Source of the DNA: Nitrosopumilaceae archaeon
GTDB lineage: Archaea > Thermoproteota > Nitrososphaeria > Nitrososphaerales > Nitrosopumilaceae
Assembly: GCA_965200155.1 (NCBI GenBank)
Contig: CBDATR010000024.1
Span: 224,001 to 288,000, forward strand
Length of the DNA: 64,000 nucleotides
Reading direction: 5' to 3'
Shown here: in pieces, positions 2,730 to 52,045 of the stretch
How positions within the stretch are numbered: the first letter of the stretch is position 1
Layout: every line of letters starts with the position of its first letter
The notes under the pieces: model-generated
Database searches by the model: none
Told to the model about the DNA's origin: nothing
Seen by the model: only the letters and a program-made list of their open reading frames with translations
Program-made: the position numbers and the translations under genes

Positions 2730-3507
2730 GTGCACGGACAAAGGACTCCACGTTGGACTCCATGTCGTCGAACCGGGACTTTTCCATTACATTCAGGATG
2801 GCGCTGCCCACTATGACCGCGTCCGCACCCGCATCCACGTATCTGCGAGCATCCTGGGCCCCGCTTATGCCAAAACCTATGCCCACCGGTATGTTACCGG
2901 TTACGCTCTTTATCCTGTCCAGTGCCCGTACGGCATAATCCTGCACACCGGTACGGGCTCCGGTGGTACCATATACCGCAACCATGTACAGGAATCCCGT
3001 AGTGATTCTGGCGATACGAGCAACCCGTTCTGTCTGGGTATTGGGGGAGACCAGGAATATTGTATCAACACCGTGGCGGCGTGCAGATTCCACATAGGAA
3101 TGTGACTCTTCCGGGGGCATGTCCGGCAGTATGATGCCATCTACGCCATTAGTCGCGGCGCCAGAAGCGAATGCCTCATATCCCATACTGTACGCTATAT
3201 TAGAATATGTCATGGTAACAAGGGGTACATCGGTGAAGGCCCGTATACGGGATACCATATCATAATAGGAGGATATATCCATACCATTCCCCAGTGAGAC
3301 ATCGGCTGCCTCCTGTATGGCTGGCCCATCGGCCAGTGGATCCGAGAAGGGAAATCCCATCTCTATTATATCTGCGCCGCCCTTTACCAACCCCCTTACG
3401 GCAGATATGGTGGACTGGTTATCGGGATAGCCTGCCATGACATATGCTATAAGGGCCTTCTTTCCGGATACGGAGAGGGTATCGCTAATTCTTCCCATGA
3501 TTATCAT
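2710..3507 (-). CDS. trpA: tryptophan synthase alpha chain
   Basis: [34 protein letters not shown]. Confidence 0.97.
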
Positions 3508-8696: not shown

Positions 8697-9667
8697 TGTA
8701 ATGTATGAAAAGTCGGTCCGCTAGTCATTGGCATCCAGCTCCATCCATTTTGCATCATTTGCCCTAATTGTCTGGGTCGCCTTTTTATTCCTGAAGCGGC
8801 GTTTCGCCGTTATCTATCCAGTGAGAAGTGCAATCTTCTCTCATTGTAGTAGTCTAAATAATCCTGGAGACTGTCATAATGCCATATCTCATTGGACTCT
8901 TAAATAAGAGTCCCCTCGTCCTCAATCATTCCATGGAAGCGCTTCAGTTTGCCATTTGTCTGCGGGTGGTATGGTCTGGAATTGATTAGTATGATTCTTG
9001 ATCCAGCAGTTCTTCCTCGAATAGTGTTGGTTTCCAGTTCTTTTTGCCCTTTTATTGTCCTATGAAACACGCGCCGTTATACGAGATGCAGGGGCGCCGA
9101 ATCGTTTCATTGCCGATCTCAGTAGAGTGGCGTTCTCTGAGGTTGTATGCTAGAATAGTGCCGCCCCGACTATACACCTGGATGCATCATCTATGAGATT
9201 CAGTCCCTCCTGAAGCGCTCATCTTTCATGGCATGCCAGTGCCACATTGCATTGGAATATTTATGCTCATAGCGTACCCACTCTGACTTTGCAGGTGATG
9301 AGACTGCCGTACCGTTCTTTTTCATTATGCAATATACTGCGCGATATGTATCATGTCTCAGTCTCTTTGCAATACGTACTACTCCGGCTGGATCCTTGCT
9401 GTATGCTTCAGTTACCATTCGTATCTGGGTGGCGGTGATTGGTATCATAGGCCTGCCCATCTTGAGTCATTCCCGTCCTCTGGTTCACAATCTTCGTACG
9501 TGTCTTGTTTCAGGTCTTGAGCTATGTTGGTGGCGGCAACACCTCTTGTCTTGCTGAATCGCTTCGTGATTCTCTTGATTCCTCTGTTATTCTCTTTATC
9601 ATCTGGCAATGAAATAGTCAGCTACTGTACGCCGGATCCTAAGCGGACTTACTTTTCGTACTATTGA
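8697..9667 (-). mobile_element. IS481-like element copy 1, frameshifted transposase
   Basis: Imperfect TIRs GTACGAAAAGTAAGTCCGCT / GTATGAAAAGTCGGTCCGCT; integrase-core fragments (WVRYEHKYSNAMWH, DDASR, PYHPQTNGKL, YYNERRLH); near-identical copies at 21259, 28878 and 35925. Confidence 0.85.
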
Positions 9668-12206: not shown

Positions 12207-13328
12207 ATGCGTACTTCAATACTAAGCTTGATTGTGGGTATAGTGGTGGTTGGGGCAGTGATAACCGCGCTATACGTGCCCACTACATTGGAAACAGACC
12301 CTGTATCTGTGGATGTTCCTAATTACATTGCATTTGAGCCCGCTAGCGCTCAGGAGAATCTAACTCTTGTGGACATATTCCAAATGTCTGAATCCGGAAC
12401 GGTGCAAATAGTCACTTTGCGGAATGATACACTCAGTAATAATAGCGTAGGATCCGGCTTTGTGTTTGACAAGATGGGTCATATAGTAACAAATGCACAC
12501 GTAGTACGCGATAGCGTGTCCCTGGAGGTTACCTTTCTGGATGGCAGGTCATATGAGGCAGAGCTTGCCGGTGCAGATGAGCACACTGACTTGGCCGTGA
12601 TCAAGGTTGAGACGGATCCTGATCTACTTTCCCCCCTGCCCATTGGAGACTCTGGCATTCTACAAGTGGGCCAGGGGGTGGCTGCCATTGGCAATCCATT
12701 CGGACTGTCCGGTTCAATGACCGCGGGAATAGTTAGTCAGGTTGGGAGACTGCTTCCTGCAGGTCAGTCAAACTTTTCAATACCTGATGTGATACAGACC
12801 GACGCGGCCATCAATCCAGGCAACTCTGGCGGTCCCCTGTTAAATATGCGAGGTGAGGTCATTGGAGTGAACACGGCCATACAGACCGGTACTGGTGAGT
12901 TTGCTGGCGTGGGATTTGCCGTTCCCTCACAGACGGTTCTAAAAATAGTTCCTACCCTTATAGAGGATGGCGAGTATCAACATCCTTGGATTGGTGTGTC
13001 CGGGACAGATATAAGCCCCAGATTGGCAAATGTACTTAATCTTACGGACACCCGTGGATTTCATGTCGTGGCGGTCGTGGAGGACAGCCCCGCGCACAAG
13101 GCTGGCTTGCGTGGCTCCAACCAAACAGTGCAGTATGAGGGTGTAGTGTATGTTGTGGGTGGAGATGTGATAACAATGGTAGATGACGTTACTGTACGAA
13201 AAATCTCCGACATTTTGTTACATTTACAGCGCTCAAAGGCAGTTGGCGATGAAATACTAGTCCAGCTGTTACGGGATGGGAAAGCTTTGGAAAAAACCAT
13301 AATCCTAGAGAAACGTCCAGTCCCATGA
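12207..13328 (+). CDS. HtrA/DegP-like trypsin serine protease with PDZ domain
   Basis: TNAHVV, DLAVIK, IQTDAAINPGNSGGP, C-terminal PDZ. Confidence 0.95.
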   Translation: MRTSILSLIVGIVVVGAVITALYVPTTLETDPVSVDVPNYIAFEPASAQENLTLVDIFQMSESGTVQIVTLRNDTLSNNSVGSGFVFDKMGHIVTNAHVVRDSVSLEVTFLDGRSYEAELAGADEHTDLAVIKVETDPDLLSPLPIGDSGILQVGQGVAAIGNPFGLSGSMTAGIVSQVGRLLPAGQSNFSIPDVIQTDAAINPGNSGGPLLNMRGEVIGVNTAIQTGTGEFAGVGFAVPSQTVLKIVPTLIEDGEYQHPWIGVSGTDISPRLANVLNLTDTRGFHVVAVVEDSPAHKAGLRGSNQTVQYEGVVYVVGGDVITMVDDVTVRKISDILLHLQRSKAVGDEILVQLLRDGKALEKTIILEKRPVP

Positions 13329-13493
13329 AAAGTATGATAATTGCTTAGACCACTTTTCCATATATGCTGCCAAAGCAGAGACTAAATCCTGTTATTTCAC
13401 TACACAGTATAGGATTGGCAGGGACCATTTCCTACCGGTTTGCTTATGCTTGCTTACCGGATTGTGCCATGAAAACATATCTTAATCCGGAGC

Positions 13494-13508
13494 GACCTAA
13501 ACGGTTAC
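13494..13508. mobile_element. orphan end of IS66-type family 2 element
   Basis: GACCTAAACGGTTAC, identical to the MITE end at 31773-31787. Confidence 0.6.
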
Positions 13509-13873
13509 GTGCTATGATGCTCGCCTGTCTTTGTGTGTGTGCGGTTACCTTTCTTTGGGATCTGGTCCATAATCTTCGTACATGTCTTGAACTAATGCTT
13601 GGGCCCTGGGCTATTTGTGACGGCAGCGCCCTGCGACGCACGTCGCGCCCTCTCCTTCCGCGCATCATAATGCTTGGGCCCTGGGCTATTTGTGACGGCA
13701 GCGCCCGGTGGCCGCGCCGTTAAAGCGACATACTGGATTCCAATGCTTGGGCCCTGGGCTATTTGTGACGGCAGCGCCTCTTTCTGTCGCGATTCCTCTC
13801 TTTACCATGTCGCTTGTGCAGCCTGAACTACTGTGCGCCGGATCCTGAGCGGAATTACTTTTCGTACTATTGA
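13509..13873 (-). mobile_element. diverged IS481-like 5' fragment carrying a CRISPR-like insertion array
   Basis: Ends in TTACTTTTCGTACTATTGA like the other copies; HTH-coding segment ALPSQIAQGPSISSRHVRRLW. Confidence 0.7.
13594..13778. CRISPR. CRISPR-like mini-array: three identical 37-bp repeats with unique 38- and 36-bp spacers; non-canonical, repeat derived from IS sequence
   Basis: AATGCTTGGGCCCTGGGCTATTTGTGACGGCAGCGCC at 13594, 13669 and 13742. The repeat structure is certain; the CRISPR interpretation is inference and no cas gene is in the window. Confidence 0.5.
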
Positions 13874-13932
13874 CCAAGTGTAACTCACCATACTGGAATA
13901 GACCTAGAATGAGATAACTAGTCATGGAATGA

Positions 13933-14889
13933 TCAGTACTTGTCAAGACCAGTTGGTTCTGGTTGCAATGATGATTCCATTTCGAACTGTTCTGGTAGTT
14001 GGTCTATGATCCTGTCTGACGCTATTCCCACATAGACCAACCGCTCTATTATGGCGCGTACCATGTCACCATTCACGCCCTCTAGTGGATAATTCGTGAT
14101 GCCACTCTCTGCATTGGAACGATACTTGTATCTGTCAACGAACCATCCTACAGGCGTTCTACCATTGACTGAGTAATGGATTGTTGGTATGTTATCGTAT
14201 ACTAACACGTTATCCAGTAGTAGTTTGGATTGATCAACTATTCCCTTTGGTCCGGGACCGTCATTGGGTTTCTTACCAAAGGCTATTTTTTCGGGAGCGT
14301 CAGGTATTGGAACCAGCGACTCGCCCAGATTGTAACGGGGGCCGGTCTCATAATTGAGATGCAAGTCAGCTAGCTGTCTACCTGCTTTCATGAATGAGTG
14401 GAAATCGGGCGCCATGGGCATGTTTGGAAAACCGCGAACGAGGAATACCTGGTACTTGGTACGATAGCCGGGGTGGTGTAGAATCCCATACGTATAGTAG
14501 AATATATCCTCCTTCGTTATAGCATCATCATGGTATCGGTTCTGGTATTGTTTCAGCGCCCAGTCTGTAATGTTATCATTCATTTCGTCACCATCATTGT
14601 TGTTATTTTGTTTCTTTACTTTCATGGGAAAGCACTGGGACGGTGCAATGTTGTTGAGATCCGGCGTCATTCCCGTTATGAATACTGAGAACTCGCCCTT
14701 GATCTTGTTGGGTACTATTATCGCCAGGTTCTCGTATGGTGGACTGGTGGACTTACCTTGTGGGTGTTCTCATTATTTTTGTTCTTTGTACGCAAGGGTA
14801 AACAACGAGATGTTTCATGTACATGGATGTCCGGTGTTATATCGGTGACTAATGTTGAGAATTCACCCTTTATTTTATTAGGTACCAAG
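13933..14889 (-). pseudogene. second, 5'-less copy of the Type ISP enzyme C-terminus with two variant ~40-aa modules
   Basis: ORF 13933-14670 is nearly identical to 16162-16830; upstream modules VPNKIKGEFSTLVTDITPD and IIVPNKIKGEFSVFITGMTPD. Confidence 0.8.
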
Positions 14890-16161: not shown

Positions 16162-17079
16162 CTAGGGAATAGGCGCCTTGTAGTACTTGTCCAGGCCGGT
16201 TGGTTCTGGTTGCAATGATGATTCCATTTCGAACTGTTCTGGTAGTTGGTCTATGATCCTGTCTGACGCTATTCCCACATAGACCAACCGCTCTATTATG
16301 GCGCGTACCATGTCGCCATTCACGCCCTCTAGTGGATAATTCGTGATGCCACTCTCGGCATTGGAACGATACTTGTATCTATCAACGAACCATCCTACAG
16401 GCGTTCTACCATTGACTGAGTAATGGATTGTTGGCATATTATCGTATACTAACACGTTATCCAGTAGTAGTTTGGATTGATCAACTATTCCCTTTGGTCC
16501 GGGACCGTCATTAGGTTTCTTACCAAAGGCTATCTTCTTTGGAGCGTCAGGTATTGGAACCAGCGACTCGCCCAGGTTGTAACGGGGGCCGGTCTCATAA
16601 TTGAGATGCAAGTCAGCTAGCTGTCTACCTGCTTTCATGAATGAGTGGAAATCGGGTGCCATGGGTATGCTTGGTAAACCACGAACGAGAAATACCTGGT
16701 ACTTGGTACGATAGCCGGGGTGGTGTAGAATCCCATACGTATAGTAGAATATGTCTTCCTTTGTTATTGAATCATCATGGTATTGGTTCTGGTATTGTTT
16801 GAGCGCCCAGTCTGTAATGTTATCTTTCATGGAGTCATCGTCTCCTGTACTTTCAGTGGGAATACCTGACCATTTGGTACTACTTGTAGATCCGGTATCA
16901 TTCCCGTTATGAAGCAACTCCACTCGCCCTTGATCTTGTCGGATACTATTATCGCCAGATTTTCCTGTGTAATTACCTTCTCCGGTACAGGACCTAGATT
17001 TTGGTCTGCCTTTACATGGTGAGTGGTGAGTGGTGAGTGGTGAGTGGTGAGTGGTGAGTGGTGAGTGGTGAGTGGTGAG
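16162..17079 (-). CDS. C-terminal frame of the Type ISP enzyme, out of frame with the main ORF at the present repeat count
   Basis: KEDIFYYTYGILHHPGYR, GRQLADLHLNYE, YSVNGRTPVGWFVDRY. Codon-by-codon check shows the frame is open up to 17079, with TAA at 17080-17082. Confidence 0.75.
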   Translation of the reverse strand, partial: LTTHHSPLTTHHSPLTTHHSPCKGRPKSRSCTGEGNYTGKSGDNSIRQDQGRVELLHNGNDTGSTSSTKWSGIPTESTGDDDSMKDNITDWALKQYQNQYHDDSITKEDIFYYTYGILHHPGYRTKYQVFLVRGLPSIPMAPDFHSFMKAGRQLADLHLNYETGPRYNLGESLVPIPDAPKKIAFGKKPNDGPGPKGIVDQSKLLLDNVLVYDNMPTIHYSVNGRTPVGWFVDRYKYRSNAESGITNYPLEGVNGDMVRAIIERLVYVGIASDRIIDQLPEQFEMESSLQPEPTGLDKYYKAPIP

Positions 17080-20000
17080 TTACCTACCTCTTGTTCATTC
17101 TCTGCATTTTGTTTCTTTACTTTCATGGGGAAGCACTGGGATGCCTCGTGAATGTGTAAGTCCGGTGTGGTGTCTGTGACAAATGTTGAGAATTCACCTT
17201 TTATTTTGTCCGGTACCATGATGGACACGTTCTTGGTGTCTGGGCGTGGGTAGAATAAGGGTATACGGTATGTGCTGGTGATAAAAGTCGTATCAAAATA
17301 GAGATATTGTTTGAAAAATGGTCTATACAGAGACATTCTAATGTTGGTATCATGGAACATTAGTGGTTCATCTAGTTTCCGTATACTATTCTGAAGATCT
17401 TCATTCCATGCAACATATTTCTTATCCTTGTCAAAATTTTTCTTCAAGTCCTGCTTGGCACAATGTTCTATTGTTCTTCTCATATTCTCTTCCAGGTCTT
17501 GGGGCGATGCGTTGTATACCCAAACATCTCTGTGTGTTTTCAATCCGTTAGAGTACATATGAAATAGAGTATTGACTGTCTTACCACGTTTTCCCTCTTT
17601 ACTTCCCATTGAAGTCATGGAATCCCATCGTTCACTGGTATCACCACGCTGTTCCAACCAGTCATGATAACGGTCTGGTGTTATAATTTGCCAGTCTTGT
17701 ATTCCGGCGATGGAGCCATATTCTTTTATCTTTTCTAGTTTCTTATCCCTGTCCAGATAATCACCAATGTCGTGGTAGTGGATGGTGCAAGATTGTTTGG
17801 CCGGGTTCTTAACTAGTATGGTTATGGCTGTTGCCTCACGGGAGCCACCGCCAAACACATTGCCTGCCTCGCGCCTTCGTTGTTCTCCCTGTGTTTTTGC
17901 ATCACCTCGTAAATTGAAACAGTAGACATCCGTGAACTCCATTCCAAGACAGGCGCGTATGCCTGCTTCACTATTCCCAGTGATATATGCGGATGGTGTG
18001 ATTAAACCGATAACTCCGGAATCACCTATTCTTTCTGATACCCAGCGGAGGGCCTTGATGTAGGAGTTGTATAACCCTCTAGTGTTCCCTTTGGGCGCGT
18101 TTTTGATGTATGTCTTTGACACACTATCTCCCAGATACGGATGCGAGACATTCTTGTTATCCTCATTGGCCGTCTTCTGACCGCCACTATATGGCGGATT
18201 CCCCACTATGACATTGACGTAATCCATATTCTGCCGTTTCACCCTAGTCATGGCTTCCTCCAGGGAATCATCTGTAATCTTGATCTGCTTCTTACGCTGT
18301 TCGGAATCCAGCCTGTATGAGGGGCTCTGTGCGAATGTATCCAGGTATGATATCCCGCCAAATGGAACATACTCCCCGCTCTTTTTCTGGTATGATGCCT
18401 CAATATTGGACATGGCGACATAGAATGCCGGTAACATTATTTCATTCGCGTAAATATCATTCTGGTACTTGTCAGGTAGTGCATCATCACTGATCATCCC
18501 TCGCTCTATTAACTGGGCAAGGAATATCCCGGTACCGGTGAACGGGTCCAGCACCTTTACTGCTCTATCATTGAATGTTTTCCCAAACTCCGATTCTAGT
18601 ACATGAGAGACTGATGAAATAATGAAATTCACGATTTCGACTGGTGTGTGTACGATTCCATGTTTGTCCGCGGACTTTTTATCCGAGCCAATGAAGAATG
18701 CGTCATATATGGCGCGCAGGAAATCCTGCTTGGCATCCGGCTCCTTGAATAGTTCAATGTCTGCCTGTATGCCCGTATAGAATGCCTCGAACTGTTCTAG
18801 TTGTCCCTGTATGTTTAGTCGTTGCATGGTATTATCGAATGCTGATGCCACCGGGTTAGCATTCTTGGGGAACATTACATTGAATACTCTGGACATTACA
18901 GCATGCTGTGATAATGCACGAATGGTCTGCTCATATGTCAACGTGAATCCGACTATATGTTTCAGGTTCTCGTGTAATTGTTCAATGATGGGCGCAGTTT
19001 CCGGCTCAATTTTGATTCGCTGTTTCAGTTTGGTCTCTATTATTACGGCTTGCTCCCCTAGTCGCTTGCCCATGTTGGCGTGGTAACTGGCATCGCCAAG
19101 ACTCAGTATGACATTCTGTACATCCTTTAACAACTTGTCACTGAGTCCTGCCCCCAGTGTACGAATAATCCAGTCATTCAGTCTTGGTGGTATTTCTGAC
19201 GGATCCGGTGGCTCATGTTTACCACTCTTTCCCGACTTGGACAGTACATACTTGTTCAGTAGCTTTTGCAGTCCATCATCATGTGCTGTGATCGCACGTA
19301 ATATCTTGCTTATCTGCTCGTACCGTGTGTTCCTTTTCAACACATGATGTGGATCATCACCCTTCAAGACTGGGATGGGGACTATAACGTAACCTGTTTT
19401 CTTTCCCTCTGATTTTCGCATTACTCTACCAATACTTTGTATTATGTCGATGGGTGAGTTCTTGGGTTCCATGAATACAACGGCATCCAAGGCTGGAACG
19501 TCCACGCCCTCCTGCAAGCACCTGGCATTACTGAGTATACGAATCTCCTTTGGATCACTATCACTATTTCGTAACCAGTCTATCCGCGCTCCCCTGTCCA
19601 GCGAGTTGGTAGAACCATCAACATGCCTCGTTACAGTCTTGTAACCGTCCAGATCGGGATCAGTCTTTAGTAGTCTCTCGCTTAAATTATCAAAGCTTAA
19701 TGTTTCCTTCGTGATTTTATCAAGCTTGAGTGGTTTCTTTGCCTTGTCCATGTTCCTGCCATGATTGGAGAACAACTTTGACGCTTTTATGGTGTTGAAG
19801 AATACCATCACCCTCTGTAAGGGCCGGAATTCCTTAGTATCACCATCATATGTGATCGCCTTACAGATACTGTTCACTTTTGACATGTAGTCTATGTCCA
19901 TATCCTCGTAATCCTTGAGATCATCACCATGTTCCCTTGCAGCCTTGATGATTTCACCATACGCATCATTCTCATCAACCTCTGGTAGTATTATTTTGAA

Positions 20001-21218
20001 AGGTGTGAGTAGTCCAATATCGACCGCTTTTGAGAATGGTAAGTCATATAGTACATCGCCATATTTCTCATTATCCATGGAGTATACTTCCAGTCCTTGA
20101 TCCGTGGCATCCTTTCTACCCTTTTCTGTATAGACACGGGGGGTGGCAGTCATGTAGAGCCGCCTCTTGGCTGGAACCTCGCTATTCTTGTGTGCAGTCA
20201 AGTAATAGGATTCCTTGATTTTCTCGGCGCCAGTGGTGCGGTGGGCCTCATCGAATAGAATTAGATCAAATATACCATTTCTGTCCCGTATGGCTTTTCC
20301 CACACGCTCCACTGAATTATACGTGGAAAATATGACACGCATACCTTTTCGGTTCTCCATAGAATGTAGTTGCTCCTTTATCGTTTCCACATCTGTGGAT
20401 GGTTGTATGGGACACTCAGTGATGGAACCTGCCTCATCTGTACCGGACGACTTGTCAGAGCATACTGCCATGTACTGATGTTCTATGGAACGGTTATCTG
20501 CCCACTCTCTCATCGCCTGCGGTATCAGTGATATTGACGGTACCAAGTATAGAACAAGACCATCTTTCCCTGGAATGGTTTCTGCGATATGGAGTGATGT
20601 TATGGTCTTGCCAGTCCCACATGCCATGATGAGCTTACCGCGATCTGCACCCTGTAGTCCGGTGACTACTCTTTGAACTGCTTCCTTCTGGTGATCTTGT
20701 AATGTCTTTGGTTTCACTGCTCTCTTCATTCCACTCCAGTCAATTCTGCTCTGGCGGAGATCAGCCTTCATGAGTATTGAGTAACCGGATTCTTCGAACG
20801 GTTTTACAATATTCCTGCTTACGTGCGCCCCTGTGAATACAAGAATGAGTCTGTCCATCTTTTTACTCTCCTTTACGACAAACATGTTTGAGATCTGATT
20901 CTCGTGGATACTGGAATCATCATTCCAGCACTTGCACTGAATGCCAACTAACTTGTCATCCTTGTCTCTGGCAACCAGATCAATTCCAATGTCCGGTTCA
21001 CGATACCAGTCATGGAATAGTTTTACTTCCTTGAACTCATTCTTGTATATGCTGTCATTCTTGAAGTAGTGTAGCATTAGTTTCTCAAATCGGACACCAC
21101 GTTCAGTCTTGCTAACTTTACTGCCCTTGCGGCTGATATCCTTTTCATCATCGGTCTCCGCACGTAGCCTTGCTAATGCTTGATCAAAAGTTTCCACTAT
21201 TCCTGGAATGATTCCCAC
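16827..21218 (-). CDS. Type ISP-like restriction-modification enzyme (Mrr-type nuclease, SF2 helicase, N6-adenine MTase, TRD), C-terminally truncated as read
   Basis: DIGIDLVA..IQCK; MACGTGKT, DEAH, MTATP, QSIGRVMR; DPFTGTG, GNPPY; NLRGD, YRPF. Confidence 0.92.
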   Translation of the reverse strand: MGIIPGIVETFDQALARLRAETDDEKDISRKGSKVSKTERGVRFEKLMLHYFKNDSIYKNEFKEVKLFHDWYREPDIGIDLVARDKDDKLVGIQCKCWNDDSSIHENQISNMFVVKESKKMDRLILVFTGAHVSRNIVKPFEESGYSILMKADLRQSRIDWSGMKRAVKPKTLQDHQKEAVQRVVTGLQGADRGKLIMACGTGKTITSLHIAETIPGKDGLVLYLVPSISLIPQAMREWADNRSIEHQYMAVCSDKSSGTDEAGSITECPIQPSTDVETIKEQLHSMENRKGMRVIFSTYNSVERVGKAIRDRNGIFDLILFDEAHRTTGAEKIKESYYLTAHKNSEVPAKRRLYMTATPRVYTEKGRKDATDQGLEVYSMDNEKYGDVLYDLPFSKAVDIGLLTPFKIILPEVDENDAYGEIIKAAREHGDDLKDYEDMDIDYMSKVNSICKAITYDGDTKEFRPLQRVMVFFNTIKASKLFSNHGRNMDKAKKPLKLDKITKETLSFDNLSERLLKTDPDLDGYKTVTRHVDGSTNSLDRGARIDWLRNSDSDPKEIRILSNARCLQEGVDVPALDAVVFMEPKNSPIDIIQSIGRVMRKSEGKKTGYVIVPIPVLKGDDPHHVLKRNTRYEQISKILRAITAHDDGLQKLLNKYVLSKSGKSGKHEPPDPSEIPPRLNDWIIRTLGAGLSDKLLKDVQNVILSLGDASYHANMGKRLGEQAVIIETKLKQRIKIEPETAPIIEQLHENLKHIVGFTLTYEQTIRALSQHAVMSRVFNVMFPKNANPVASAFDNTMQRLNIQGQLEQFEAFYTGIQADIELFKEPDAKQDFLRAIYDAFFIGSDKKSADKHGIVHTPVEIVNFIISSVSHVLESEFGKTFNDRAVKVLDPFTGTGIFLAQLIERGMISDDALPDKYQNDIYANEIMLPAFYVAMSNIEASYQKKSGEYVPFGGISYLDTFAQSPSYRLDSEQRKKQIKITDDSLEEAMTRVKRQNMDYVNVIVGNPPYSGGQKTANEDNKNVSHPYLGDSVSKTYIKNAPKGNTRGLYNSYIKALRWVSERIGDSGVIGLITPSAYITGNSEAGIRACLGMEFTDVYCFNLRGDAKTQGEQRRREAGNVFGGGSREATAITILVKNPAKQSCTIHYHDIGDYLDRDKKLEKIKEYGSIAGIQDWQIITPDRYHDWLEQRGDTSERWDSMTSMGSKEGKRGKTVNTLFHMYSNGLKTHRDVWVYNASPQDLEENMRRTIEHCAKQDLKKNFDKDKKYVAWNEDLQNSIRKLDEPLMFHDTNIRMSLYRPFFKQYLYFDTTFITSTYRIPLFYPRPDTKNVSIMVPDKIKGEFSTFVTDTTPDLHIHEASQCFPMKVKKQNAENEQEVGNSPLTTHHSPLTTHHSPLTTHHVKADQNLGPVPEKVITQENLAIIVSDKIKGEWSCFITGMIPDLQVVPNGQVFPLKVQETMTP
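17017..17079. repeat. simple sequence repeat (TGGTGAG)9 inside the RM gene
   Basis: Nine perfect heptamers counted; encodes SPLTTHH x3. Confidence 0.95.
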
Positions 21219-21258: not shown

Positions 21259-22308
21259 TCAATAGTACGAAAAGTAAGTCTGCTTAGGATCCGGCGTACA
21301 GTAGCTGACTATTTCATTGCACAAGCCATATGGTAAAGAGGATAACAGAGGAATCAAGAGAATCGCGAAGCGATTCAGCAAGACAAGAGGTGTTGCCGCA
21401 ACCAACATAGCTCAAGACCTGAAACAAGACACGTACGAAGATTGTGAACCAGAGGACGGGAATGACTCAAGATGGGCAGGCCTATGATACCAATCACCGC
21501 CACCCAGATACGAATGGTAACTGAAGCATACAGCAAGGATCCAGCCGGAGTAGTACGTATTGCAAAGAGACTGAGACATGATACATATCGCGCAGTATAT
21601 CGCATAATGAAAAAGAACGGTACGGCAGTCTCATCACCTGCAAAGTCAGAGTGGGTACGCTATGAGCATAAATATTCCAATGCAATGTGGCACTGGCATG
21701 TCATGAAAAGATGAGCGCTTCAGTGGGGACTGAATCTCATAGATGATGCATCTCATTATTGCGATATTATATTTAACGCGCATTTTACGCTTCAGGGGGG
21801 ACTGAATCTCATAGATGATGCATCCAGGTGTATAGTCGGGGCGGCACTATTCTAGCATACAACCTCAGAGAACGCCACTCTACTGAGATTGGCAATGAAA
21901 CGATTCGGCGCCCCTGCATCTCGTATAACGGCGCGTGTTTCATAGGACAATAAAAGGGCAAAAAGAACTGGAAACCAACACTATTCGAGGAAGAACTGCT
22001 GGATCAAGAATCATACTAATCAATTCCAGACCATACCACCCGCAGACAAATGGCAAACTGAAGCGCTTCCATGGAATGATTGAGGACGAGGGGACTCTTA
22101 TTTAAGAGTCCAATGAGATATGGCATTATGACAGTCTCCAGGATTATTTAGACTACTACAATGAGAGAAGATTGCACTTCTCACTGGATAGATAACGGCG
22201 AAACGCCGCTTCAGGAATAAAAAGGCGACCCAGACAATTAGGGCAAATGATGCAAAATGGATGGAGCGGGATGCCAATGACTAGCGGACCGACTTTTCAT
22301 ACATTACA
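21259..22308 (+). mobile_element. IS481-like element copy 2
   Basis: Same TIRs and sequence as 8697-9667, plus an extra 72 bp at 21716-21824. Confidence 0.87.
21716..21824. repeat. 37-bp duplication flanking a unique 35-bp insert
   Basis: CGCTTCAG(T/G)GGGGACTGAATCTCATAGATGATGCATC at 21716 and 21788; present once in the three sibling IS copies. Confidence 0.92.
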
Positions 22309-51938: not shown

Positions 51939-52045
51939 GAGCCCGCAGGGAATTCTGCTGGACCCAATCGCACCCAGGTAACCATTCTTGGAATGATGCG
52001 CCAATACAGGAGCCCGCAGGGAATTCTGCTGGACCCAATCGCACC
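51939..52045. repeat. 36-bp perfect duplication flanking a unique 35-bp insert
   Basis: GAGCCCGCAGGGAATTCTGCTGGACCCAATCGCACC at 51939 and 52010. Confidence 0.92.

Follow-up and report, generated by a model that had tools for sequence, protein, structure and literature searches.

The 64,000-nt window analysed here is a stretch of the genome of a Nitrosopumilaceae archaeon (hereafter G000; coordinates without a contig prefix are positions in this window). At 13561-13873, on the minus strand, it carries the decayed terminal remnant of a probable IS481-family element, as delimited by alignment with sibling copies and with the element end at 13873. Within the terminal ~170 nt of this insertion sequence (IS) lies a structure resembling a small CRISPR array, here termed the mini-array. 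Window-wide, a 37-mer (AATGC...GCGCC) was found in three exact plus-strand copies at 13594-13630, 13669-13705 and 13742-13778 (0 mismatches), and none of 100 dinucleotide shuffles yielded any 37-mer match. The copies start 75 and 73 nt apart and thus leave stretches of 38 nt (13631-13668) and 36 nt (13706-13741) in between, which do not resemble each other and have a GC content of 0.68 and 0.61, respectively, vs 0.466 for the genome. These exact coordinates, together with the shuffle control, confirmed the initial annotation of three identical 37-bp repeats separated by unrelated GC-rich spacers of 38 and 36 bp. The mini-array was not listed by Tandem Repeats Finder, as is expected of a structure in which just one half of every period recurs.

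Most likely the unit actually duplicated is 36 nt long, with copies at 13594-13629, 13669-13704 and 13742-13777, and the two inserts, or spacers, then measure 39 nt (13630-13668) and 37 nt (13705-13741), all on the plus strand; at copy 1 the exact 37-nt repeat extends to 13630, and copies 2 and 3 are exact repeat matches. This parse was preferred because spacer 1 is identical to the genomic sequence it stems from over all 39 nt of 13630-13668 and because the repeat of the resident CRISPR system is 36 nt long. Spacer 1 is a 39/39 copy of a unique locus on another contig (G000:C10:225673-225711); spacer 1 in reverse complement gives the initial 39 nt (ATGATG...), or first 13 codons, of the organism's own gene nac, which encodes a 114-aa NAC-domain protein (PF01849, 2e-10). 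As spacer 1 begins exactly at the nac start codon, an origin from a leaderless mRNA was considered and rejected: nac overlaps the stop codon of the upstream gene (ATGA), and the position of the start was therefore treated as a coincidence. Spacer 2 had no match in the own genome, in metagenome_contigs (exact 36-mer) or in viral_contigs (exact 27-mer core), exact scans which diverged sources would escape. The comparison of the spacers with host, viral and metagenomic data that the initial annotation had proposed hence gave a match for spacer 1, in the host's own nac gene, and none for spacer 2.

Comparison with other copies of the host element defined the state of the target before insertion. 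The terminal ~120 nt of the element have more than 100 matching places in the genome, and the best-preserved sibling frame (278 aa) matched the IS481 model NF033577 with an E-value of 1.6e-41 and 142.7 bits, which is below the 224-bit cut-off. In five of the six aligned sibling copies the 36-nt segment is present once, and the mini-array locus has 148 nt extra at this point. A homologous single copy, that is a paralogous 'empty site' in a sibling IS remnant, was located by alignment at 9508-9543 on the plus strand, where the initial annotation had placed it at about 9500-9545; its further statement that deletion of two repeat-plus-spacer units restores a colinear IS also proved correct, as judged against the five sibling copies. 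At the identical position the sixth sibling (C5:82479) has a single 75-nt unit whose insert is a different one, and one IS segment thus took three independent insertions in two copies, two in the mini-array and one in C5:82479. In both IS481 copies carrying insertions the boundary beside ...GAACT is identical and the other boundary is shifted by 2 nt; this shift compensates a 2-nt indel inside the segment, exactly as expected of a 36-nt ruler fixed at one of its ends. The reverse strand across the mini-array repeat reads MMRGRRGRDVRRR-ALPSQIAQGPSI-SSRHVRRLWTR. The notion that the repeat encodes a peptide of the IS held for ALPSQIAQGPSI on this strand; the label 'HTH' (helix-turn-helix) found no support, the local 74-aa IS frame having no Pfam match. 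Decayed IS481-family copies with frameshifted transposase frames abound in G000 (window 8900-9667 and many other places, with more than 100 terminal fragments), an abundance that fits a genome under relaxed selection.

G000 possesses a single adaptation module, located on contig C9 and adjoining an array of 289 repeats. The order is a Cas4g/Cas1g fusion (NF049935, E 1e-213, 710.7 bits, cut-off 560; Pfam Cas1 3.4e-91 and Cas4 1e-18), Cas2 (PF09827, E 1e-18, 67.7 bits, cut-off 23.8), leader and array, and beyond the array follow the Cas3 extension (E 3e-82), Cas3g (E 2.4e-148), whose frame extends further upstream in the same frame, Csb2 (E 2e-84) and Csb1/Cas7g (E 3e-20). The Cas4g/Cas1g fusion, Cas3g, Csb2, Csb1/Cas7g and the Cas3 extension all scored over the cut-offs of the NCBIfam models, and by its predicted gene products the C9 system is assigned to type I-G. 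The canonical array (G000:C9:71011-92088, ~21 kb) consists of 36-nt repeats (ATTTCC...TTGAAGG), the last of which is degenerate, and of 288 spacers, 287 of them unique. Spacer lengths are 37 nt in 101 cases (the mode), 36 nt in 85, 38 nt in 63, 35 nt in 16, 39 nt in 15 and others in 8, giving periods of 71-75. The range of 35-39 nt covers 280 of the 288 canonical spacers, and the mini-array inserts (39 and 37 nt) fall inside it, just as the length of the mini-array duplication equals that of the resident repeat. The cas genes and array geometry that the initial annotation proposed to look for were thus present, with Cas4g/Cas1g and Cas2 encoded in the genome and with 36-nt repeats and 35-39-nt spacers matching the mini-array. 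The 37-mer itself heads no other, cas-linked array: no copy besides these three was found in the 2.38-Mb, 51-contig, 87.6%-complete G000 assembly, and none in the genome_contigs collection. In the same assembly no second cas1 was detected by the Cas4g/Cas1g model. Across the family, Cas4g/Cas1g scored over the cut-off in 11 of 81 genomes; the arrays adjoining it had 36-nt repeats in eight of the nine relatives' loci examined, and seven of those eight repeats share the start ATTTCCG and the end CCCCATTGAAGC. A solitary canonical repeat with few mismatches was also observed on the minus strand of G000:C43, ~1.6 kb from the contig end and beside an IS481-family end; it is preceded by ~40 nt resembling the true leader and may represent an orphan leader-repeat unit.

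G000 outside the canonical array was scanned, over periods of 40-130, for directly duplicated segments agreeing in 33 or more of 36 positions. Periods 71-75 accounted for 63 duplication pairs (4, 28, 16, 10 and 5, respectively) vs 107 pairs over the other 86 periods, the latter being mostly coding tandem repeats at multiples of three. After six coding tandem repeat regions had been removed by hand, 68 curated events in 50 target classes were counted, 63 of them with distinct inserts, and the duplicated sequence varied by locus. A unique self source is known for 22 events, and in 17 of these the stretch shared with the source is as long as the period minus 36, within ~2 nt; the duplication is therefore 36 nt and the insert 35-39 nt throughout the series. 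The mini-array locus is one of about 57-63 dispersed loci in which a 36-nt duplication flanks an insert of 35-39 nt, a series that had escaped the initial annotation. The same window contains two more: at 21716-21824 a 37-nt direct duplication (1 mismatch) flanks a 35-nt insert with a period of 72, the target lying in another IS481-family copy, and at 51939-52045 an exact 36-nt duplication flanks a 35-nt insert with a period of 71, 33 nt of this insert being identical to G000:C35:35832-35864.

Orthologous empty sites were found for two other events, one of them next to the adaptation genes themselves. At the junction of the cas1 stop and the cas2 start (G000:C9:70400-70587; L031 ~3107-3294), three copies of a 36-nt segment are interspersed with two inserts, and the segment is single in the same-genus genome G008 and in G057, G000 being 148 nt longer; the duplication leaves both the cas1 stop and the cas2 start intact. 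Growth to three repeats was observed at this ectopic site and also at C24:500916. At C10:141055 (L014/L060) a 73-nt event splits a gene for an Mrr-like restriction endonuclease (PF04471), and residues 164-174 of the 462-aa orthologue of G008 match both sides of the event in different frames. An intact Mrr-like paralogue (72% identity, 451-aa frame) lies at C43:124289-125206. Three proteins carry in-frame insertions of 24 residues, composed of a 12-residue duplication and 12 new residues and caused by 72-nt events, at L010 (C22:16726), L015 (C10:40507) and L016 (C43:106018), for example SIANTIILWHARQ-RRMAATTVVAA-SIANTIILWHARQ. Just six of the 68 events are internal to ATG-initiated frames of at least 150 aa, and periods divisible by three were found in 33/63 events vs 102/288 in the canonical array (P 0.015). 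Few gene-internal events together with an excess of in-frame periods fit selection against disruptive insertions. A claim that removal of the units restores four large genes was withdrawn, as the majority of the events are located at the ends of genes or in intergenic stretches.

The targets of these events show a weak preference in sequence. When 51 target classes were compared with the first 12 nt of the canonical repeat, the mean best match was 5.49 vs 4.73 +/- 0.155 for random sites (0/300 controls reached it; z 4.9); the last 12 nt showed a weak resemblance (z 2.5) and the middle of the repeat no effect. We relied on this direct comparison because an expectation-maximization motif search on the 51 targets gave a weak signal, with a total information of 8.8 bits vs 6.8-7.8 in 10 controls. 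Repeated insertion was seen in eight target classes, with inserts that differ in all but possibly one of them. One of the eight, a motif of an IS66-like transposase, is a hot spot, with 76 genomic copies and at least five distinct inserts. In several IS66-like copies (C10:6462, C10:210205, C13:25654, C24:97241, C51:127 and also C31:2830) one repeat-insert-repeat unit with the same 35-nt insert was noticed, which is either an ectopic unit spread by transposition or an old feature of the element; other IS66-like copies have gained different inserts at the same motif.

The inserts differ from the canonical spacers in their origin. An exact match elsewhere in the own genome was found for 24 of 63 distinct ectopic inserts, whereas none of the 288 canonical spacers matched a native locus (Fisher P 1.8e-20). 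Outside the array, a match of at least 28 nt was seen for a single canonical spacer, spacer 58, and its partner is no native gene but the ectopic insert C25:4797-4831, with which spacer 58 overlaps by 27-28 nt in opposite orientation; ectopic and canonical inserts therefore sample the same foreign DNA pool. The unique self sources are concentrated on contig C10, which makes up 22.7% of the assembly and holds 14 of the 22 (binomial P 4.6e-5), spread from 28 kb to 479 kb. We infer that naive uptake takes up much self DNA, that self spacers in the working array would be lethal and thus lost, and that ectopic units, if unprocessed, would be neutral. Selection would then explain the self contrast between the ectopic units and the canonical array.

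Folding analysis likewise separated the two kinds of repeat. The ectopic repeat of the mini-array folds at -6.5 kcal/mol (z +1.8), and an equal or better fold was obtained for 192 of 200 shuffles, whereas the canonical repeat forms an 8-bp stem at -14.3 kcal/mol (z -2.85). No Rfam CRISPR-DR match was found at the mini-array up to E 1, and the canonical repeat itself gave only weak DR16 matches (E 0.88). The mini-array repeat hence differs in sequence from the cas-linked repeat and lacks the canonical-type hairpin by which the repeat of a functional array would be recognized, in agreement with the initial view that it is not a standard CRISPR repeat. On these models, processing of the mini-array into CRISPR RNA (crRNA) is unlikely. 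As the new repeats are without the hairpin of the true repeat, they would probably yield no crRNA, which would explain why a self-derived spacer is tolerated.

The mini-array locus was present in seven public runs from two studies, labelled as sponge metagenome or as a coded organism and none of them an RNA run. These data are k-mer contigs, which show presence and give no allele frequencies. In all four runs examined, from both studies, contigs with 0 differences covered 13200-13622, 13601/2-13659, 13639-13697 and 13749-13964 or -13981, and the junctions repeat 1/spacer 1, spacer 1/repeat 2 and repeat 3/flank were seen in 4/4 runs at depths near that of the flanks. A listed contig, X5, covers 13677-13771, and contigs with loose ends at 13630 and 13668 continue into the nac locus. 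The depth over spacer 2 (13696-13757) was below that of the flanks in three of the four runs and is not readable as polymorphism. No joint corresponding to a shorter allele was seen in the public contigs, where such alleles are invisible since the 37-nt repeat exceeds the assembly word. The structure is thus supported by sequencing data at its repeat/spacer junctions, in contigs of two studies, and not over its full length.

Taken together, the mini-array is very probably a scar left when off-target full-site integration took place twice in succession, through the organism's own type I-G complex of Cas4/Cas1 fusion and Cas2. Two spacer-type integrations at an ectopic site, as the initial annotation had proposed, are supported by the cas module, the nac source, the paralogous empty sites and the genome-wide series, and comparison of sequences points to Cas4/Cas1-Cas2 as the putative agent. 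The integrase would have docked at a site with a leader-side end loosely similar to the beginning of the true repeat, and two staggered strand transfers 36 bp apart, set by the ruler for repeat length, would have been followed by gap repair, which would double the 36-bp target on either side of a prespacer of 39 or 37 nt. One prespacer would have been cut from the own nac gene and the other from DNA absent from the assembly. The target in this case would be non-CRISPR sequence inside a decayed IS481-family remnant, and the identical process may have left about 57-63 scars genome-wide. With less confidence, though on balance favourably, we consider that G000 may hold a record of rampant off-target adaptation, comprising ~57-63 independent integrations by one I-G complex, an unselected self-rich sample of prespacers, a canonical array purged of self and hot spots in IS elements.

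Several observations weigh against this interpretation. There is no orthologous empty site for the mini-array locus, the available empty sites being paralogous IS copies, because the relatives are too diverged in DNA; same-genus genomes are only ~80% identical over 80 nt near another event. The public sequences are k-mer contigs, not reads, and none of the listed contigs covers the 185-nt structure from end to end. For spacer 2, no source was found by exact matching in the own genome, metagenome_contigs or viral_contigs. A shared protospacer-adjacent motif (PAM), for which the initial annotation had proposed to look, found no clear support: beside the source of spacer 1 lie CAT and (reverse complement) GAC instead of TTN, the PAM expectation taken from another organism (PMC6547450), and TTN occurs on one side in only 8 of 22 unique self sources vs 4.0 +/- 1.8 by chance (P about 0.04). 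In a comparison made by eye, the leader-side orientation derived from the motif agrees with the TTN side in only three of eight events. Over the 12 nt at the start of the repeat, the mini-array target agrees in only 6/12 positions, and ~6 of the 63 peak pairs are expected as background at the rate of the other periods. Finally, the role assigned to the integrase is predicted from sequence.

Other origins of the mini-array were weighed on the same evidence. That it is an orphan fragment of a second conventional CRISPR array, whose cas genes were lost or which was brought in by a transposon, would be suggested by three regularly spaced identical repeats with unrelated spacers and by their location inside a mobile-element remnant, but it is extremely unlikely in view of the restriction of the 37-mer to this locus in the genome and in genome_contigs, its identity as ordinary IS sequence that is single in five sibling copies, the lack of a repeat-type hairpin and of an Rfam CRISPR-DR match, the presence of one cas1 only by the Cas4g/Cas1g model, and the ~60 other loci with different 'repeats' in the same 36-nt geometry. 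Replication slippage, unequal recombination or another Cas-independent duplication is highly improbable. Tandem duplications are common, G000 has many coding tandem repeats (27 long diagonals), and one mini-array unit, C31:2830, looks secondarily duplicated; slippage, however, copies adjacent sequence, and the inserts here are unrelated to the flanks, spacer 1 coming from another contig and spacer 2 being unmatched, so that the derivation from neighbouring sequence named in the initial annotation as a possible objection does not apply. Moreover, slippage would not produce a fixed duplication of ~36 nt with inserts of 35-39 nt over some 60 loci, and, counted per period, the background duplications elsewhere in the range are fewer by a factor of about ten.

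An artefact of assembly or binning might be suspected in an assembly of 51 contigs and 87.6% completeness and for a structure that no single listed public contig spans. Such an artefact would, however, have to recur as 0-difference junction contigs in all four runs from two studies, to copy the resident CRISPR geometry at ~60 loci and to create clean target duplications that align with orthologues, and we give it hardly any credence. The remaining proposal accepts integration by Cas1-Cas2 and adds that the unit was later put to use, for instance as a transcribed RNA with a guide-like or regulatory role or by seeding a functional array. The uptake of a second spacer, by which the site remains an active target, and the growth of the other ectopic sites at C9:70400 and C24:500916 to three repeats speak in its favour; on the other side, the repeat folds unlike the canonical one, with the energies and z-scores given above, and spacer 1 would target a housekeeping gene of the host itself, which makes later use very unlikely.

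Off-target integration by the I-G complex, the explanation we prefer, was not evident in a sample from a related genome with the same system. G006, a genome of the same genus that possesses a I-G system, was sampled over 398 kb (14.5%) and gave no peak for periods 71-75: there were seven matches at periods 72/75, at three loci, and the four of the seven that were inspected (at least one per locus) were all coding tandem repeats and none ectopic units, whereas comparable stretches of G000 contain 12-14 events. Possession of a I-G system is therefore not enough, and the difference in G000 might be due to relaxed selection in a symbiont rich in IS elements, to a high activity of adaptation or to a leader-targeting factor having been lost. 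As to the neighbourhood of the mini-array, two near-identical minus-strand frames of ~245 aa (13933-14670 and 16162-16923) share ~190 residues that are nearly the same. A 1463-aa minus-strand frame (16827-21218) that, judged from open frames alone, resembles a large fused restriction-modification enzyme is overlapped at its 5' end by the second of the two.

The origin of new CRISPR arrays and the extent of self uptake are long-standing questions that have mostly been studied by over-expression. A wild sponge-associated archaeal symbiont with dozens of scars makes the target rules of a type I-G integrase measurable (a 36-bp ruler and a motif like the 5' end of the repeat), as well as the unselected prespacer pool on natural data (24/63 ectopic self inserts vs 0/288 canonical) and the cost of off-target adaptation (one split gene, three in-frame insertions of 24 residues and an excess of in-frame periods). 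If our interpretation is true, scars that are not read as guides would preserve an unselected prespacer sample that is at least 38% self and strongly skewed to one 540-kb contig, next to a working array of 288 spacers purged of self, and hot spots that mimic the start of the repeat in multi-copy IS elements, with at least one unit already copied along with its element, would offer a route for the birth and spread of arrays. For annotation it should be borne in mind that scars of this kind will be reported as small 'orphan arrays' by CRISPR-finding programs.

The mechanism proposed here is of a known kind, as a comparison with other systems illustrates. In Escherichia coli over-producing Cas1-Cas2, off-target spacer integration gave rise to neo-CRISPR arrays (Nivala, Shipman & Church 2018, as described in 10.1101/148544, PMC6698737 and PMC7054753), and natural evidence from two other species was termed 'circumstantial' (10.1101/148544; PMC7054753). 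As in those neo-arrays, in G000 a spacer-sized insert lies outside the array, a target of repeat length is duplicated and the resulting unit can be targeted again; unlike them, the present case is natural and archaeal, involves a type I-G Cas4/Cas1 fusion and comprises ~60 events with many self sources identified. In the literature searched, a paper on sponge Thaumarchaeota included, we found no report of a natural genome with many off-target integrations. Pyrococcus furiosus Cas1 and Cas2 showed in vitro a motif- and spacing-guided off-target integration, with a repeat of 30 bp (PMC6698737). There, too, the complex sets the spacing of the sites, and short motifs of the leader-repeat junction and of the repeat recur at the off-target sites, whereas the G000 sites are 36 bp apart and their targets resemble the repeat only in its first 12 nt (z 4.9) and, to a weak degree, in its last 12 nt (z 2.5).

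The closest relative in terms of enzymes is the Cas4/1-Cas2 complex of the Geobacter sulfurreducens type I-U (now I-G) system, for which spacers of mainly 36 bp and a TTN PAM in 50% of the unique new spacers were reported (PMC6547450). Subtype and Cas4-Cas1 fusion are the same; the spacers in G. sulfurreducens, by that account, came mostly from plasmids and entered the array, whereas in G000 integration took place outside the array and TTN adjoins 8/22 self sources. In Streptococcus thermophilus, ectopic acquisition of spacers has been described inside arrays, away from the leader-proximal repeat (PMC7999890 and PMC5338259). Those events reportedly occurred at true repeats within an array, in contrast to the G000 targets, which are not CRISPR repeats. 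Casposons are kilobase-sized elements with short target duplications of about 14-15 bp. They integrate by means of Cas1-type casposases (PMC5137440) and thus resemble the present case in employing a Cas1-family integrase and in duplicating the target site; the G000 inserts, at 35-39 nt with duplications of 36 nt, differ from casposons on both counts. What is new in comparison with these systems is a natural archaeal type I-G case that extends genome-wide and that comes with self sources, hot spots and signatures of selection.

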